Positions 1 to 5,428 of a DNA stretch of 5,428 bases are shown here, in pieces. The notes under the pieces are model-generated. The model searched no databases. It was given only the letters and a program-made list of their open reading frames with translations, and was not told the DNA's origin. This stretch comes from a virus. Taxonomy: Duplodnaviria > Heunggongvirae > Uroviricota > Caudoviricetes. Both the position numbers and the translations under genes were made by a program. The stretch spans positions 1-5,428 of the IMG/VR virus record IMGVR_UViG_2778261035_000008. One strand, given 5' to 3'. Within the stretch, counting starts at the first letter, position 1, and each line of letters opens with the position of its first letter.

Positions 1-239
1 ACCGGTTTTGACTGGTCAGCGATGGCCTGCAACGATGCCGCCAGCGTGCCTTTTTTACCGGCCTTTGCAATTGCGCTTTGCACATTGGTAATCAGCACCG
101 GTTTATTGAGGGGGAAGGTTTCCGCATCCGCATCGCTGGCCGTGCAGACCATGCCGACAATGGCAGTGGATACGGTGGAAATGACGCGGGTGCCGTCGTT
201 AATCTCCAGCACCTGCACGCCATGATGATAGTCACTCAT
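1..239 (-). CDS. FI: Contractile tail sheath protein, N-terminal 79 codons (P2 gpFI-like); gene continues beyond the window's left edge
   Basis: Reverse complement from ATG (239..237) reads [79 protein letters not shown] with no stop before position 1. I recognise this as the N-terminus of P2-type tail sheath FI (recalled from memory, not searched). A GGAG Shine-Dalgarno (revcomp of 248..251) sits 8 nt upstream of the ATG. The + strand ORFs 22..225 and 78..293 are antisense shadows of this gene. Confidence 0.85.
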
Positions 240-827
240 CCGTTTAACTCCGTGGTTAATGGGTGCAACTATTTTCTGTTGGGCAGTGCATGAGACGCTA
301 TTTGACCTGACTGGTCAGTGGATGAAACAACAGATAAAGAAAAGGCGGGCAATCAGATTGCCTGTCCTGATTTGTACTCACTCATTTTCCGACTGACAGT
401 TTACATAGCCAAAACGCTATCAAATCTGACAGCCTGCTTGAGCGAGGAGCAGGCCTTGCAACTTCGTAGGCGCACTTTTAATATTTTTATGGGCAGTTAA
501 AAAACTTGTGGTATAAAGGCTCACCTACTGAACGTACTGTTGAATGAAGCGGGGTCTACAAGAATGAAAAAAATACGAACAGAACCGCCAACCGTTTCGG
601 TGAATAAATTAGTTTACGCTTATCCTGCACACTATTAATTTTAGAATCAAAAAAGACCAACTAAAATACAAAATAATTTTTACAGTGATTAGTTAATCAT
701 GAAAATATAAAGATAATCAAAACCACCACTTAAATTAACTGACACCCAAGCCTTGCAATGAAGATAACCCCCCGCAGCAGCGAGGTAATATCTTTTGTAT
801 CTATGTCGCAAAATATCACTCTTTTAC

Positions 828-856
828 TTGCTTAGAGCCCTCATAAGAGATACTTT
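828..856 (+). promoter_or_regulatory. Candidate sigma70-type promoter for the cargo gene (-35 TTGCTT 828..833, 17-nt spacer, -10 TACTTT 851..856)
   Basis: Read by eye in the AT-rich leader about 40 nt upstream of the ATG at 893. The -10 matches the consensus only at the T, A and final T positions. AT-rich DNA produces many such matches by chance. Confidence 0.2.
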
Positions 857-892
857 ATCAATCTTTATTCACGAACATCTAAATGGCAAATC

Positions 893-3055
893 ATGATAAA
901 CAATATAGTTATAAATAAAGTTGCAAGTTATAAGTCAAAATCAGAGTTAAATACTGATAAAAAAGTAAATATTATTTATGGTTTAAATGGAACAGGTAAA
1001 AGCACCTTCTCCAATTATTTCTATGACATAGATAATAAAAAATATGAGAATTGTTCCCACTCAGGTGAGTATGATGAAATCCTTGTCTACAATCAGAAAT
1101 TCATTCAGGATAACTTTTATGCAAAGGATTCTTTAAATGGAATATTTAGCTTGTCCAAGGAAAATAAAGAAGCAAAAGAAAAGGTTGAGAGCCTCACATT
1201 AGAAATAATAAAACTATCTGATGAAAAACGTGAAATTGAAAAAGAAATAACAGCACAAAACACCTCTGTTTCTGATGCAAAAAACAAAGCTCAAAATAAA
1301 ACATGGGAAATAAAAACCAACTATTCAGGTGGTGACAGGGTCCTTGAATTTTGTTTATTAGGAAAAATGGGAAGTAAAGAATCATTATTCAACCATCTTT
1401 GCTCCATTCCTTTACCTAATTCTAAGCCATCAAAAAACATCTCTGACTTAAAAGAAGAAGCAAGTGCGATTGATGGCGAAACAGCAATAAAATACAGCAT
1501 GCTAGAGGAGATTCACACCATCGTATTATCACTCGATGAAGTGGAATTACTTCAGAATATAATTGTGGGAAGTACAGATAGTCCCGTTTCATATCTTATA
1601 AGTAAGCTTCAGAACTCTGATTGGGTAAATGAAGGACTAAAATACTTAGAACAAACAGGAGATTCTCAGTGTCCATTTTGTCAATCTCAAATTATAACTG
1701 AAAACTTGGTTCAGCATATTCGCAACTATTTCGATGAAACGTATCAAGATAGTGTAAAAAAAATAAAATCCATTCAGACCAAATATAACTCATTGATTGA
1801 CAGTATTCCTTCACTGGATACTTATAAAGAATGCAAACTATCTTCAAATTATATAGTTCAATTAAGCGACTGTTACGCCCTGTTAAGAAAAGATACAGAG
1901 AGCAACTTGGAACTAATAAAGCAGAAGGTAACAAACCCCAGTACCCCAGTAACGCTGAATGATATATCCAACTCTGTTGATAACTTCAATTCATTAGTGA
2001 AATTAGTGAACAATGAAATAACCACACATAACTCAAAAATAGACAATGCAAAACACGAGCTAGAAAAAATAAAAATTTCTTTCTGGCAGCTCTTAAGGTA
2101 TGAGTATGATCAAACAATTTTAAATTTCAACGAAATAAAAGAAAGTGCAAACATTATAACAATCAGAAAAAACACCGCCAAAGATGAAAAAGAAGCAAAA
2201 ATAAAGACTAAAGATGCAGAACGGATTGAATATCAGAAATCAACAGTAAATATAGATGATGCCGTATTCAACATAAACCAAGGTTTAAATGACATCGGAA
2301 TCACAGATTTTCACATCGCAAAATATGAGGATACTCTTTATCGCATAGTACGTAATGACTCTAATTCTAAAGTATTCTCATCATTAAGTGAAGGCGAAAA
2401 AATGATTATCAGCCTTTTGTATTTTAGAGAACTATTCAGAGGTAAAAGAGTCGCCACCGAGGGTAAAACCAAAAAAATAGCTATAATCGATGATCCTGTA
2501 TCAAGCTTATCACATATTTTTGTCTACAATATAGGCCAACTAATAAAAAATGATTTCTTTAACTCTAATGAAATAGAGCAGATATTTGTTTTATCTCACA
2601 GCTTATATTTTTTCTATGAACTCGCTGATGCAAACCATGAAAGAAGAAAAGAAAATCAAAATTTATTTAGGCTTTCTAAAAACTCCAACGGCAGTTCAAT
2701 TATCTTAATGAAATACGATGAAATACAAAATGACTACCAGTCTTATTGGTCAGTAATCAATGATGACAAACAGCCTCCTGCCTTAATTGCTAACTGCATG
2801 AGAAATATAATTGAATACTTTTTCAATTTTGTACAAAAAGCAGATTTAAGCAATGTCACTCAAAAACCAGAGTTAAAAAAACCACGATTTCAATCCTTTA
2901 TTCGCTACATAAACAGAGAGTCACACTCATTAGGACAGAACATTTTTGACTTCAAGGAATTTAACTATAATGATTTCAAAGAAGGGCTTAGATTAGTGTT
3001 TGAGCACACAGGTTATTCTGCACATTATAAAAAAATGGCAAAAATAAAGAACTAA
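893..3055 (+). CDS. ABC-type ATPase with a CxxC-containing insertion and putative C-terminal nuclease domain; candidate RloC/PrrC-like anticodon nuclease (anti-phage abortive-infection protein). Function is inferred.
   Basis: 720-codon ORF, ATG 893 to TAA 3053..3055. An in-frame stop at 833..835 and no alternative start codon between make 893 the only possible start; no canonical SD. Motifs read from the translation: Walker A GLNGTGKST (aa 30-38, nt 980..1006); CPFC (aa 260-263, nt 1670..1681) in a Lys/Glu-rich region between Walker A and signature; signature-like LSEGEK (aa 498-503, nt 2384..2401); Walker B KIAIIDD(P) (aa 528-535, nt 2474..2497); H-loop-like VLSHS (His569, nt 2597..2599). 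C-terminal domain (aa ~585-720) has R637-x3-E641 (nt 2801..2815) and H678 (nt 2924..2926). Confidence that this is a real gene is ~0.9; confidence in the RloC/PrrC-like call is ~0.45. Confidence 0.8.
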   Translation: MINNIVINKVASYKSKSELNTDKKVNIIYGLNGTGKSTFSNYFYDIDNKKYENCSHSGEYDEILVYNQKFIQDNFYAKDSLNGIFSLSKENKEAKEKVESLTLEIIKLSDEKREIEKEITAQNTSVSDAKNKAQNKTWEIKTNYSGGDRVLEFCLLGKMGSKESLFNHLCSIPLPNSKPSKNISDLKEEASAIDGETAIKYSMLEEIHTIVLSLDEVELLQNIIVGSTDSPVSYLISKLQNSDWVNEGLKYLEQTGDSQCPFCQSQIITENLVQHIRNYFDETYQDSVKKIKSIQTKYNSLIDSIPSLDTYKECKLSSNYIVQLSDCYALLRKDTESNLELIKQKVTNPSTPVTLNDISNSVDNFNSLVKLVNNEITTHNSKIDNAKHELEKIKISFWQLLRYEYDQTILNFNEIKESANIITIRKNTAKDEKEAKIKTKDAERIEYQKSTVNIDDAVFNINQGLNDIGITDFHIAKYEDTLYRIVRNDSNSKVFSSLSEGEKMIISLLYFRELFRGKRVATEGKTKKIAIIDDPVSSLSHIFVYNIGQLIKNDFFNSNEIEQIFVLSHSLYFFYELADANHERRKENQNLFRLSKNSNGSSIILMKYDEIQNDYQSYWSVINDDKQPPALIANCMRNIIEYFFNFVQKADLSNVTQKPELKKPRFQSFIRYINRESHSLGQNIFDFKEFNYNDFKEGLRLVFEHTGYSAHYKKMAKIKN

Positions 3056-3100
3056 AAAACCGCAGTATATGGTTCAATGACTGAATTAATTATTCATCAC

Positions 3101-3131
3101 AGCCTATCAGGGATTTTATTATTGATAGGCT
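3101..3131. terminator. Stem-loop between convergent genes; possible intrinsic terminator for the cargo gene
   Basis: Perfect 9-bp inverted repeat AGCCTATCA (3101..3109) / TGATAGGCT (3123..3131) with a 13-nt loop, 46 nt after the cargo stop codon, followed on the + strand by ATTTATCTTATATAT. The tail is T-rich but not a clean T-run. Confidence 0.4.
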
Positions 3132-3200
3132 ATTTATCTTATATATCACCATGTTCGCATATCTGCTATTGCTTGCCCCTCCCGCTATCTAGCATGATCT

Positions 3201-3236
3201 TGACAGCTTCCGCTCGTGGCACAGAGCGGACTGTCA
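3201..3236 (-). terminator. Imperfect GC-rich hairpin downstream of gene G; possible terminator of the H-G tail fiber transcript
   Basis: TGACAG-CTTC-CGCTC / GAGCG-GA-CTGTCA around a GTGGCACA loop, about 60 nt past the G stop on the minus strand. No clear U-tract on the minus strand, so the terminator role is uncertain. Confidence 0.25.
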
Positions 3237-3292
3237 GATTAGGCTTTACTCTGTGCCATAGATATGTAAGCTCACACCAGAGCTCATACAAC

Positions 3293-3820
3293 TTATTGCG
3301 GCATTTCCGGCCATTCAGGATTTGCAGGATCCACACGACTGACCAGAACGCTGTAGCGTTCCCATGCTTCCAGTCGGCTGCGCTCCTCATCTGTTGCCAT
3401 GTTCAGTCTGACCGCGCGCTCCAGCAGCAAAATCACGGATTCAGCTTCGGAAAGTAAAGTTGCCTTTTGTGATTCTGCCAGTTGATGCTGTTCGTCTGCC
3501 GTATAAATCCGCTTAATCACGGCACCATCCTTAAACATCCATTTACCTGAGTCATCAGCACGTCGGTTGGCGGTAATATCAGGAACCTCGACAACGCTAA
3601 AACCTTCAGGGTTAAGCGTTGAAGCATCTCTGGTGATGCCGACAATTATATTATTCTCGTCGTAAACAATCTTTATCGTGTCTTCCTGAAAATTACTTAC
3701 TTCCTCATACCAGTTTTTTCCGTCTTCAGACCATAACCAGATAACATCAAAATTTTTTGTCAGTTGATATTGAGCAACAGTTTTGGGATTACCCGCAGTA
3801 ATATTTTTTAAATGCTGCAT
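3293..3820 (-). CDS. G: Tail fiber assembly (chaperone) protein, P2 gpG-like
   Basis: 175-codon ORF, ATG at 3820..3818 and TAA at 3295..3293. Translation [41 protein letters not shown]...[13 protein letters not shown] is recognised as P2 gpG-type tail fiber assembly protein (from memory). The start lies 3 nt after the H stop, with an AGGTG SD inside the last H codons, which is typical H-G coupling. Confidence 0.9.
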
Positions 3821-3823
3821 AAA

Positions 3824-5428
3824 TTACACCTGTGCGACGTTATACCATGTGCCATTGATGTATTTTTGTATTGGTCTGAATACTGCGGGGTCATCACCAT
3901 CGACTTCACCGACAATACCAAGCCCTGTAATTACATGGCCTGATTTTTCATACATCACACCTTTTTGCATAGTCTGAACAATACGTGTGCCCAGGCGAAT
4001 ATCTCGTACATAGCGAGAATCCGATTCAGCTTTGGTATATGCACCAACATCTCCCGCAGAGGGTTTGCGGGTTGTGGTGTAAAACTCTGACCAGTCAGCC
4101 TCAAATCCATAACCATCACGTGCTGAACGATAAAAAATACCGCCGTTCTTATAATTCACACGGAACTGTACGGCAGGGCAACTCCCCGCATTCATATTGA
4201 AGTGGAGGATTAATGTCGATGCACCGCTGATATCTGCATCATAAACACCGCTATTCCAGTTCCAGCCAACAGCTTTATCATTTGCAACCCTGCTTCCTGT
4301 TTGCCCTAAAGCAAATGCAGGCTGCTGGTTTTTCGTGTTGTAGTCTCGTCGCCAGCCGGGGGCATAAGCATCACCATGATTAATATAAGTGAATTGAGCG
4401 TTAGTGGTGCCGCCTCCGGTAGAAGTGCTTGGTGTTGTTACACGGATGGTCATGGCACCTTTATTACCCATAACCTCAATAACGCAACCTGCAAGATGAA
4501 TAGTTCCACAGCCAGTATCGGTAATAATTTTATTATTGCCGTATGACCATGAACATTTGCACATCCAGTACGGATGATTAAATGCACCACGGGAATCCAG
4601 CCATTCAATAAACTGAGCGGTTGTCCAGTTTCCGGCTTCAGTGCTCAAAGCGCCGCTATAAGCACGACAGGCACCGATATTTTTCGTGAAGGTATCCTTT
4701 CCCGGAATATCCGCACCGTTCTGATCTTTCTGAAGACGTTTTTCAGCATTGTCATAGGCAGACTTCACCGCTTTTGGTGTTGCGGCCAGCGTTTCCGAAT
4801 CACTGTTGGTGGCGCTACTGAGCTGGACAAGGCCTTTCCGCGCCGTGGTGGCATCCTGCGCAGTGTATTTCCCGTTAGCAAGGTCATACGCTGTCTTAAC
4901 CGCCTTTGGAGTTGCTGCAAGCGTTTCAGAATCGCTGTTGGTGGCGCTACTGAGCTGGACAAGGCCTTTTCGCGTTGTGGTGGCGTCCTGTGCAGTGTAT
5001 TTCCCGTTAGCAAGGTCATATGCTGCCTTTACCGCTTTCGGCGTTGCGGCCAGTGTTTCAGACGTGCTGTTGGTCGCACTGCTTAACTGAGTAAAACCTT
5101 TTGCGGTCAGCGAGGCGTCAGGGTGACGTCGTGACTGTTCATGTTCTGCAATTTTGTCATCAACGTAATCCTGCGTTGCCATCACCGTTGTGGTGTCAAT
5201 GGTCAGCTCCACTGAGGCCACACTGCTGACGATGATGACCATGCGGCAGGTCTGCGAACGCCCTGAGCCTTCGGCAAGGGCTGGCTTATAACTTTCGGCC
5301 ATGTTCGCCACGGCAATTAACGTTCCCGCATCATCGTACAGGCCAAGCTCTCGCATCCAGAAACCGCCCACCTCCGGCGGAATAACCAGCTCTGCGATAA
5401 TATAATTACTGTTTCGTTTGTCCTGGCT
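3824..5428 (-). CDS. H: Tail fiber protein (P2 gpH-like N-terminal region, divergent C-terminal receptor-binding region); 5' end lies beyond the window's right edge
   Basis: Minus-strand frame is open from the window edge (5428) to TAA at 3826..3824. The ORF track's M at 5371 is a GTG codon; the frame upstream reads SQDKRNSNYIIAELVIPPEV without a stop, so the true start is outside the window. The part reading ...GGFWMRELGLYDDAGTLIAVANMAESYKPALAEGSGR...TIDTTTVMATQDYVDDKIAEH matches P2 gpH as I recall it, followed by tandem fiber repeats (SSATNSxSETLAATPKAVKxAYD) and a distinct C-terminal domain. Confidence 0.9.
   Translation of the reverse strand, partial: SQDKRNSNYIIAELVIPPEVGGFWMRELGLYDDAGTLIAVANMAESYKPALAEGSGRSQTCRMVIIVSSVASVELTIDTTTVMATQDYVDDKIAEHEQSRRHPDASLTAKGFTQLSSATNSTSETLAATPKAVKAAYDLANGKYTAQDATTTRKGLVQLSSATNSDSETLAATPKAVKTAYDLANGKYTAQDATTARKGLVQLSSATNSDSETLAATPKAVKSAYDNAEKRLQKDQNGADIPGKDTFTKNIGACRAYSGALSTEAGNWTTAQFIEWLDSRGAFNHPYWMCKCSWSYGNNKIITDTGCGTIHLAGCVIEVMGNKGAMTIRVTTPSTSTGGGTTNAQFTYINHGDAYAPGWRRDYNTKNQQPAFALGQTGSRVANDKAVGWNWNSGVYDADISGASTLILHFNMNAGSCPAVQFRVNYKNGGIFYRSARDGYGFEADWSEFYTTTRKPSAGDVGAYTKAESDSRYVRDIRLGTRIVQTMQKGVMYEKSGHVITGLGIVGEVDGDDPAVFRPIQKYINGTWYNVAQV
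4745..5101. repeat. Direct tandem repeat, 132-bp period, about 2.7 copies, inside tail fiber gene H (encodes 44-aa fiber repeats)
   Basis: Copies at 4970..5101, 4838..4969 and a partial copy at 4745..4837. The 132-bp period was verified by matching anchors (ACCGCTTTTGGTGT at 4767..4780 vs ACCGCCTTTGGAGT at 4899..4912 vs ACCGCTTTCGGCGT at 5031..5044). The protein repeats are KGFTQLSSATNSTSETLAATPKAVKAAYDLANGKYTAQDATTTR / KGLVQLSSATNSDSETLAATPKAVKTAYDLANGKYTAQDATTAR / KGLVQLSSATNSDSETLAATPKAVKSAYD. Confidence 0.85.

Follow-up and report, generated by a model that had tools for sequence, protein, structure and literature searches.

What does a P2-like prophage carry in the place where phage P2 itself has its fun(Z) gene, and could this cargo protect the lysogen? 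The question is raised by a 5,428-nt stretch of viral DNA (IMG/VR record IMGVR_UViG_2778261035_000008, positions 1-5,428), which we call the window and to which all coordinates refer unless another locus is named. As a first-pass annotation of this DNA had described, an open reading frame (ORF) at 893-3055, coding for 720 amino acids (aa), lies between the tail fibre assembly gene G and the tail sheath gene FI, on the strand opposite to the late genes. Our analysis supports, at the level of sequence, the view that this is an intact gene for a protein of the RloC family, that is, a Rad50-like ATPase fused to a putative tRNA-cutting domain. We consider it probable that the gene codes for a stand-alone RloC-family anticodon nuclease (ACNase) and is lysogenic-conversion cargo of a P2-like prophage. 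Cleavage of tRNA, sensing of DNA ends and protection against phages are activities that we infer for it by analogy.

Family assignment of the 720-aa protein

The published definition of RloC proteins comprises ABC motifs like those of PrrC, a CX2C zinc hook within a helical insert, an Arg-X3-Glu-X36-52-His motif near the C-terminus in which Ser often precedes the His, a length of 658-897 aa, and rare linkage to restriction-modification (R-M) genes (Davidov & Kaufmann 2008, PMC2610378). As far as sequence can tell, the 720-aa protein has every one of these features. The Walker A, signature, Walker B/D-loop and switch His motifs are all present, and each of the motifs picked out in the first-pass annotation (Walker A, LSEGEK, IAIIDD, His569 and CPFC) is where it had been placed. 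The CX2C motif, for which zinc binding is predicted, sits between Walker A and the signature motif, in a helical insert of about 360 aa that divides the ATPase domain. In the C-terminal domain, R637-NII-E641 is followed after exactly 36 residues by S677-H678 (R-x3-E-x36-SH), a spacing within the X36-52 range and with a Ser before the His. The same region contains R671-YINRES-H678, an R-x6-H arrangement in agreement with the Rx4-6H motif of HEPN proteins that Anantharaman et al. (2013, PMC3710099) attributed to PrrC and RloC. No R-M gene is found in the window, in the matching prophage of E. coli PSS-11 or beside the homologs. The RloC-type architecture proposed earlier thus agrees with the published sequence definition, down to the R637-x3-E641-x36-S677-H678 pattern.

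Homology points in the same direction. A protein of Enterobacter phage ENT4 is 33% identical over the full length (E 7e-99). In the text of Fig. S1 of Davidov & Kaufmann obtained by optical character recognition (OCR), one family member (...NNDWVNQGRNY / GSDSRCPFCQNTLDDEFKKELERYFDDTF) is close to residues 241-284 of the window protein, a match to the zinc-hook block, and the CPFC motif resembles the ...RCPFCQ... of an RloC orthologue. The residues corresponding between the window protein and the RloC of Geobacillus kaustophilus (GkaRloC) are K36/K44, C260 and C263/C288 and C291, D533/D572, and R637, E641 and H678/R692, E696 and H737. In GkaRloC, K44, C288/C291, D572 and R692/E696/H737 have been shown to be important by mutation, and Lys44 is required for ACNase activation. 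Zinc-hook mutants of GkaRloC are hyperactive, and its activation in vitro requires ATP together with linear DNA.

Profile searches gave the predicted match to Pfam AAA_13 (E 2.9e-107), in which residues 10-699 lie on positions 2-708 of the 713 in the profile. The match runs from end to end and therefore covers the C-terminal domain too. The PADLOC profile PDLC04886 (PDC-S06) matches with E 1.4e-254, residues 1-717 lying on positions 1-723 of 727, and there is a weak match to PADLOC LmuB (E 1e-7). The protein belongs to PHROG 2801, whose listed function is unknown. PDC-S06 is the same subfamily, catalogued as a single-gene defence candidate; it is a computational candidate, and the literature that we found gives it no mechanism, no test and no link to RloC. 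A scan of 1.84 billion cluster representatives returned 2892 relatives at E<=1e-3 and 961 at E<=1e-30. The best 150 of the 2892 are for the most part collinear with the window protein and have lengths of about 710-790 aa; a few truncated fragments are among them. Members at <=58% identity are named "Translation-disabling ACNase RloC" or "wobble nucleotide-excising tRNase" by their sources, and these automatic names show the COG-type family into which the proteins fall. Searches of the PDB with the single sequence found nothing at E<=1, and those with a profile returned nothing beyond coiled-coil proteins and the SMC3 P-loop, so that sequence comparison detects no RloC or PrrC relative of solved structure.

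The first-pass annotation had warned that the protein could be a poorly characterised member of this ATPase group rather than a canonical RloC. The warning was fair, as the protein is about 33% identical to the type known from P2-like prophages and falls into PADLOC's candidate PDC-S06. The studied RloC proteins of G. kaustophilus and Acinetobacter baylyi ADP1 (Davidov & Kaufmann 2008; Klaiman et al. 2012, 2014) share with it the split ABC head, the CXXC hook and the Arg-x3-Glu-x36-Ser-His pattern, as well as a stand-alone gene without linked R-M, a length of 658-897 aa, the AAA_13 match and the same COG-type homolog names. The window protein belongs to a clade distant from them. It has 720 aa, compared with 826 aa in A. 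baylyi RloC, and the catalytic His of GkaRloC is residue 737. Its gene differs in being carried by a P2-like prophage in the G/FI slot, and its activity is a prediction.

Structure models, conservation and proposed mechanism

The full-length AlphaFold2 (AF2) model is of moderate quality (predicted local distance difference test, pLDDT, 72; predicted template modelling score, pTM, 0.44), with a poor N-lobe and long helices at residues 89-145, 270-347 and 359-448. Compared with folds in the PDB, the whole model is closest to Rad50, Lamassu LmuB, cohesin, condensin, retron PtuA and AriA. A comparison with Rad50 had been suggested earlier, and Rad50 is indeed among the best matches; within the quality of the model, the fold matches agree with the "Rad50-like region" described for RloC. 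The C-terminal 136 residues are modelled better (pLDDT 80.7, pTM 0.74), as a beta-hairpin followed by an all-alpha helical bundle. Rad50/SbcC, Lamassu LmuB, retron/Septu PtuA and PARIS AriA all have an ATPase head with a helical insert, and Rad50 and SbcC also share the zinc hook. Common to all of them is the use of the ABC ATPase as sensor or switch for a nuclease effector. In the window protein the putative effector forms one chain with the ATPase and would be of RNase (HEPN) type rather than Mre11, Cap4, HNH or Toprim, and there are no partner genes. LmuB is encoded with an LmuA effector, whereas no LmuA-like neighbour is present at the window gene.

These resemblances raise the possibility that the protein is a DNA-repair or chromosome ATPase of Rad50/SMC/RecN type, or a transporter ATPase, with no nuclease role. 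Besides the structural matches to Rad50, cohesin and condensin, weak profile matches to SMC_N, AAA_23 and Rad50 can be counted for it. However, the profile matches are limited to the P-loop or head and lie far below the family cut-offs: the NCBIfam models gave no specific match, with sub-threshold Rad50 P-loop scores (13.5 bits against a cut-off of 1087), and Pfam SMC_N reached 12.6 against a cut-off of 40. A confident profile match that would have spoken for a non-defence family is thus absent. Rad50/SbcC works with Mre11/SbcD and without an extra C-terminal domain; at the window, at the PSS-11 locus and at the homolog loci there is no Mre11/SbcD or kleisin partner, and the 136-aa C-terminal domain, which Rad50/SbcC lacks, is conserved more strongly than any other part of the protein. 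Nor does the protein contain membrane or transporter domains. We therefore regard a repair or transporter role as very improbable.

Conservation was assessed in an alignment of 58 representatives with 28-58% identity to the window protein. Invariant in all of them are G30, N32, G33 and K36, C260, P261 and C263, S499-E502, D533, D534, P535, S538 and S540, H569, R637 and H678, while F262, E641, R671 and S677 are at least 90% conserved. Comparison of the window gene with a copy in Raoultella (88% nucleotide identity) gave a ratio of nonsynonymous to synonymous substitution rates (dN/dS) of 0.13 for the whole gene; by region, the values were 0.19 for the helical insert, 0.09-0.14 for the ATPase lobes and 0.016 for the C-terminal domain. 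The gene is under strong purifying selection, strongest on the C-terminal domain, and the helical insert is its least constrained region. With the tightest constraint on the putative nuclease domain, the pattern is one expected of an effector rather than of a linker or a decaying tail.

Six further residues are invariant in the 58 sequences and lie outside the named ATPase, zinc-hook and triad motifs: C54 (codon 1052-1054), W244 (1622-1624), R487 (2351-2353), Y615 (2735-2737), W619 (2747-2749) and H711 (3023-3025). The most conspicuous of them are C54, which lies in the ATPase N-lobe, and H711, close to the C-terminus. Metal binding, tRNA binding or coupling of domains are possible roles.

Whether the ORF could be a decaying pseudogene or a chance ORF was also considered, as degradation in related genomes had been named as a finding that would speak against a defence gene. 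The absence of expression signals is in its favour: the 36 nt around the start (window 860-895, ahead of the ATG at 893) contain no recognisable Shine-Dalgarno sequence, and a promoter and terminator scan gave counts not clearly above those of shuffled sequence, so no promoter is named. RloC ORFs generally look poorly expressed (Davidov & Kaufmann, PMC2610378). An Rfam search gave no match at E<=1, and repeat scans within the gene found short repeats at chance level only. On the other side, the length of 720 aa equals that of dozens of homologs, the catalytic motifs are intact, dN/dS is low, and two complete E. coli genomes and one viral contig carry copies that are identical or 99% identical. 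Homolog length, motif conservation and dN/dS together refute this explanation, to which we give practically no weight.

How an RloC-family nuclease might act in this setting can be sketched from the biochemistry of the Geobacillus and Acinetobacter proteins (PMC2610378, PMC3458546, PMC3874168). In the lysogen, where the late genes on the other strand are silent, a promoter of its own would keep the gene weakly expressed, and the protein would form a dimer in which the nuclease is restrained by the ATPase/zinc-hook module. A superinfecting phage would create DNA ends, by degradation of host DNA or as linear replication or packaging intermediates, to which the ATPase heads would bind with hydrolysis of ATP. 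The C-terminal RNase would thereby be released and would cut tRNA anticodon loops. If the protein behaves like GkaRloC, the wobble nucleotide would be excised, so that phage repair by Pnk/Rnl1 of the T4 type could not reverse the damage. Translation would halt, the infection would abort and the prophage-bearing population would be protected. PrrC of E. coli also combines an ABC-type NTPase with a C-terminal RNase of the same triad pattern and cuts tRNA abortively. PrrC, however, has no coiled-coil/zinc-hook insert and about half the size. Its gene invariably lies within a type Ic hsd locus, which keeps it silent, whereas the neighbours of the window gene are P2 tail genes.

Several points weigh against this account. 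In the searchable literature we found no plaque-assay demonstration of phage protection by any RloC; where reviews count RloC among the immunity proteins that target tRNA, they do so on the basis of biochemistry. The window's clade is known from sequence alone. The comparison with GkaRloC is one of motif layout, and the published RloC alignment was used in the form of OCR fragments. The PADLOC PrrC profile matches only aa 17-81, the N-terminal P-loop region, with E 1e-5. The 442-bp AT-rich region 5' of the gene contains no promoter match above chance. Finally, residues 1-88 (window 893-1150) have a pLDDT of only 41-52 despite high conservation. The shallow alignment (38 sequences, at least 57% identity) or a need for the dimer or a nucleotide is the likely cause, and we take the AF2 model of these residues as unfit for use.

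The protein may also have the same architecture and the same abortive logic, with a substrate or trigger different from those of the studied RloCs. Variants of this idea include a PrrC-like nick in the anticodon loop, cleavage of other tRNAs, rRNA or mRNA, and a phage protein or a nucleotide as the trigger. The relation to the studied RloCs is distant, both of these being longer than 720 aa, and they themselves differ in preference: fragments of tRNA-Glu were the ones probed in A. baylyi, and the assays of GkaRloC followed cleavage of tRNA-Lys. In addition, the invariant C54, W244, Y615, W619 and H711 fall outside known roles. The triad, the zinc hook and the ATPase motifs that govern the known mechanism are nevertheless all kept, and the Pfam and PADLOC scans gave no sign of another sensor domain. 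A different substrate or trigger is therefore rather unlikely in our judgement.

The G/FI slot and its cargo

The flanking genes were identified as G, H and FI by PHROGs and by the RefSeq annotation of E. coli PSS-11, in which the cargo region is 99% identical. In P2 the order is FI(-), the pF promoter, fun(Z)(+), G(-) and H(-), and the window shares this order and orientation with its own gene in the place of fun(Z), as had been proposed. P2 homology stops at 450 and restarts at 3209; therefore the RloC-like ORF together with its flanks replaces fun(Z) exactly. The replaced segment includes 442 bp 5' and about 150 bp 3' of the gene, and its GC content is about 30-33%, compared with 46-56% in the flanks. 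Comparison with P2-like prophages carrying other cargo places the breakpoints at 445-459 on the left and 3190-3218 on the right. P2 Fun(Z), reported to block T5, is likewise a lysogenic-conversion gene in this slot and orientation, but it has no sequence relationship to the window gene, and 451-3208 is wholly replaced. The features of the window are listed in Table 1. An inverted repeat after the stop codon is a possible terminator of the cargo gene, judged from its sequence; the consensus terminator scan missed it.

Table 1. Features of the window, in order of position.
Feature	Position	Strand	Basis or remark
Tail sheath gene FI, 5' end (first 79 codons)	239-1	minus	homology to P2, PHROGs, RefSeq locus
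pF late promoter and activator site	about 260-340		just upstream of FI; by homology to P2
Inverted repeat arm (10 nt) AATCTGACAG	423-432		outside hp2; partner of the arm at 3231-3240
Left boundary hairpin hp2, CCTGCT-TGAGCGAGG-AGCAGG	433-457	+	fold -13.8 kcal/mol
Low-GC cargo segment replacing P2 fun(Z)	451-3208		P2 homology ends, breakpoints, GC profile
RloC-like gene, 720 aa, ATG start, stop codon included	893-3055	+	ORF, AAA_13, PDC-S06, PHROG 2801, dN/dS
Walker A/P-loop GLNGTGKST, aa 30-38 (Lys36)	980-1006	+	motif reading
Predicted helical (coiled-coil type) insert splitting the ATPase head, aa 89-450	1157-2242	+	AF2 model
CPFC zinc-hook motif, aa 260-263	1670-1681	+	motif reading, conservation
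ABC signature LSEGEK, aa 498-503	2384-2401	+	motif reading, conservation
Walker B IAIIDD, aa 529-534, and D-loop PVSSLS, aa 535-540	2477-2512	+	motif reading, conservation
H-loop (switch) His569, in SHSLYF	2597-2599	+	invariant
Putative anticodon-nuclease (PrrC/RloC-type HEPN) C-terminal domain, aa 585-720	2645-3052	+	motif pattern, conservation
Triad codon R637	2801-2803	+	C-terminal domain
Triad codon E641	2813-2815	+	C-terminal domain
Triad codons S677-H678	2921-2926	+	C-terminal domain
Inverted repeat AGCCTATCA...TGATAGGCT	3101-3135		read from sequence; 46 nt past the stop codon, then AT-rich run
Right boundary hairpin hp1, TTCCGCTC-GTGGCACA-GAGCGGAC	3207-3231 (with following repeat to 3240)	+	fold -21.3 kcal/mol
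Inverted repeat arm (10 nt) CTGTCAGATT	3231-3240		outside hp1; partner of the arm at 423-432
Tail fibre assembly gene G	3293-3820	minus	PHROGs, RefSeq locus
Tail fibre gene H (ORF 3824-5371 and on)	3824-5428	minus	5' end beyond the window; PHROGs, RefSeq locus

The first-pass annotation had further described the Z/fun locus as a hotspot of variable anti-phage genes. This is correct: the G/FI slot is a second defence hotspot of P2 (Vassallo 2022), and in other P2-like prophages, among them those of E. coli, we find SMEK, Shedu, SIR2, LPO_1073 and Fun(Z) there. RloC-like genes themselves are known from P2-like prophages. The founding list from Kaufmann's group includes an RloC-type orthologue of E. 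coli APEC O1 (YP_852004, 738 aa) flanked by "phage replication initiation, capsid" genes, Anantharaman et al. (PMC3710099) noted ABC-HEPN proteins in prophages, and an AAA_13 "RloC-like" protein, found 420 times, ranks fifth by frequency among the systems in the P2 Q/A hotspot (Rousset et al. 2022). The window gene is therefore a further RloC-type gene in a new but unsurprising place. The Q/A (old/tin) type, which comprises APEC O1 YP_852004 (APECO1_4465 group of Anantharaman et al. 2013), Rousset system #5 and the ENT4 protein, has the same architecture and aligns with the window protein over the full length, with the CXXC and the triad in register, and both are P2-like prophage cargo. The two are only 32-33% identical, however, and the Q/A type sits between the portal gene Q and the replication gene A, as in ENT4, where the RloC-like gene lies between the portal gene and gpA.

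The two types also differ in abundance. Among 81 viral contigs with relatives, about 21 carry them in the Q/A slot and only one, with a 100% identical protein, in the G/FI slot. The window cassette is present in 2 of 5426 complete E. coli genomes, and none of the deposited phage genomes carries it. The Q/A type is thus common, whereas the window's clade in the G/FI slot is rare.

Elsewhere the homologs are single genes with no conserved neighbour or partner. In Vibrio vulnificus (loci L005-L009, 4565-10157), a 59%-identical homolog lies directly downstream of Bunzi in all five places (PADLOC BnzA, E 1e-208; BnzB, E 1e-216), and the two make up a small defence islet between housekeeping genes. 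In a chromosomal islet of Raoultella sp. (locus L002, 6670-12251, between hypF and norW), the RloC-like cassette is the middle one of three genes in a row, with a SymE toxin gene on one side and a gene for a DUF6602/PD-(D/E)xK nuclease-like protein on the other.

From this context and from the family, we infer a defence role for the gene. The same contexts bear on whether it could instead be a selfish toxin or addiction module, which mainly stabilises the cassette or the prophage or serves the prophage life cycle (a shut-off of host translation upon induction would be one way) and gives no defence against other phages. Kaufmann's group has raised prophage-related roles of RloC after DNA damage, the cassette moves between unrelated sites, and the Raoultella copy adjoins SymE. 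Yet no antitoxin partner is present and the gene is single in all contexts seen; the slot is otherwise occupied by recognised defence genes, the Vibrio homolog adjoins Bunzi, and transcription against the late operons is what is expected of a lysogenic-conversion gene. On balance we consider addiction or prophage service improbable as the gene's role.

Apart from the cargo, the window contains a tandem repeat in the tail fibre gene H (4751-5119, minus strand; 132-bp unit, 2.5-2.8 copies, 81-85% identity). It encodes 44-aa units (…LSSATNSxSETLAATPKAVKxAYDLANGKYTAQDATT…), homology to other P2-like H genes is patchy across it, and it is probably a variable part of the fibre shaft.

Boundary hairpins and possible cassette exchange

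The cargo segment is bounded by two hairpins, hp2 on the left and hp1 on the right. Their stems are alike and their loops differ (GTGGCACA in hp1, TGAGCGAGG in hp2), and each adjoins one 10-nt repeat arm on its outward side. The general patterns of such sites are GTCYGCT-tt-GAGCGA-aa-AGCRGAC for hp2 and GTCCGCT-yy-TGGCAC-ag-AGCGGAC for hp1. The shared inverted arms of 7-9 bp (GTCCGCT/AGCGGAC), with the centre GAGCGA in hp2 and TGGCAC in hp1, have the layout of two heterospecific tyrosine-recombinase core sites.

A scan for the hp1 pattern in one genome per species found 97 stretches, most of them from Enterobacterales. At 31 of 99 sites an hp2 comes after hp1 within about 20 nt, often as an hp1-18 nt-hp2 doublet, and the doublet is present in 616 of 5426 E. 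coli genomes with 1-2 copies each. The loci examined for such sites were L196 (5570-8772), L194 (7003-11292), L195 (2834-8243), L197 (4864-6828), L002 (7529-10917) and L133. In the G/FI slot of E. coli MY504 (NZ_AP026902), P2 sequence is followed by hp2, cargo gene A, an hp1-hp2 doublet, cargo gene B, hp1 and P2 sequence again, so that the doublet stands between two cargo genes. These genes (L196 5854-8565) encode a DUF3800 protein and a 461-aa protein without Pfam or PADLOC match. In Nissle and in a Rac-like prophage, hairpin sites flank an HEC-08 gene and a PD-T7-1 gene, near the gene for a 200-aa tyrosine recombinase. This gene (L194 9126-9728 and L195 4421-5023, both on the minus strand) lies about 2 kb from the doublets in two E. 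coli islands, amid defence-type genes. Its product, WP_001305361 or WP_023147793, matches Pfam Phage_integrase, with weak NCBIfam matches to Xer and DNA-invertase models far below cut-off, and is a candidate enzyme for the hairpin sites. The window itself encodes no recombinase.

Where one cassette occurs in two unrelated contexts, its ends can be compared. For the PD-T7-1 cassette, homology between contexts runs from the TGAGCG of hp2 to the TGGCACA of hp1, and the outer arms differ. The RloC-like cassette has the same pattern between the window and Raoultella, where window 439-3171 is 88% identical (nucleotide) to the chromosomal islet and homology breaks inside the sites. The Raoultella islet has half an hp2 site on the left side of the cassette and, on its right side, an hp1-hp2 doublet at a distance of 550 bp. 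It is possible, and we put it forward tentatively, that the RloC-like gene is one cassette of a site-specific exchange that shuttles defence genes among P2 G/FI slots, prophages and chromosomal islets.

Two simpler readings of the hairpins were set aside. They were rejected as plain intrinsic terminators because they have no T-run. As for ordinary repetitive extragenic palindromic/bacterial interspersed mosaic element (REP/BIME) repeats alone, an E. coli genome holds only 1-2 doublets, the examined E. coli copies lie in prophage or defence-gene regions, and cassette homology breaks within the sites. We note that some copies in other genera lie between ordinary accessory genes, some of them convergent.

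RloC has been listed among defence systems from its biochemistry and from the analogy with PrrC, and the case for its natural trigger, whether DNA ends or something phage-specific, has been made indirectly. The gene described here is intact, comes with its own upstream region and belongs to a P2-like prophage of E. coli, and so opens the way to direct tests. It also connects the anonymous PDC-S06 of PADLOC with a mechanism that has a name, and shows that the two P2 hotspots have taken up separate clades of a single effector family. Should the boundary hairpins be recombination sites, they would account for the swapping of single-gene defence cassettes into and out of such hotspots.

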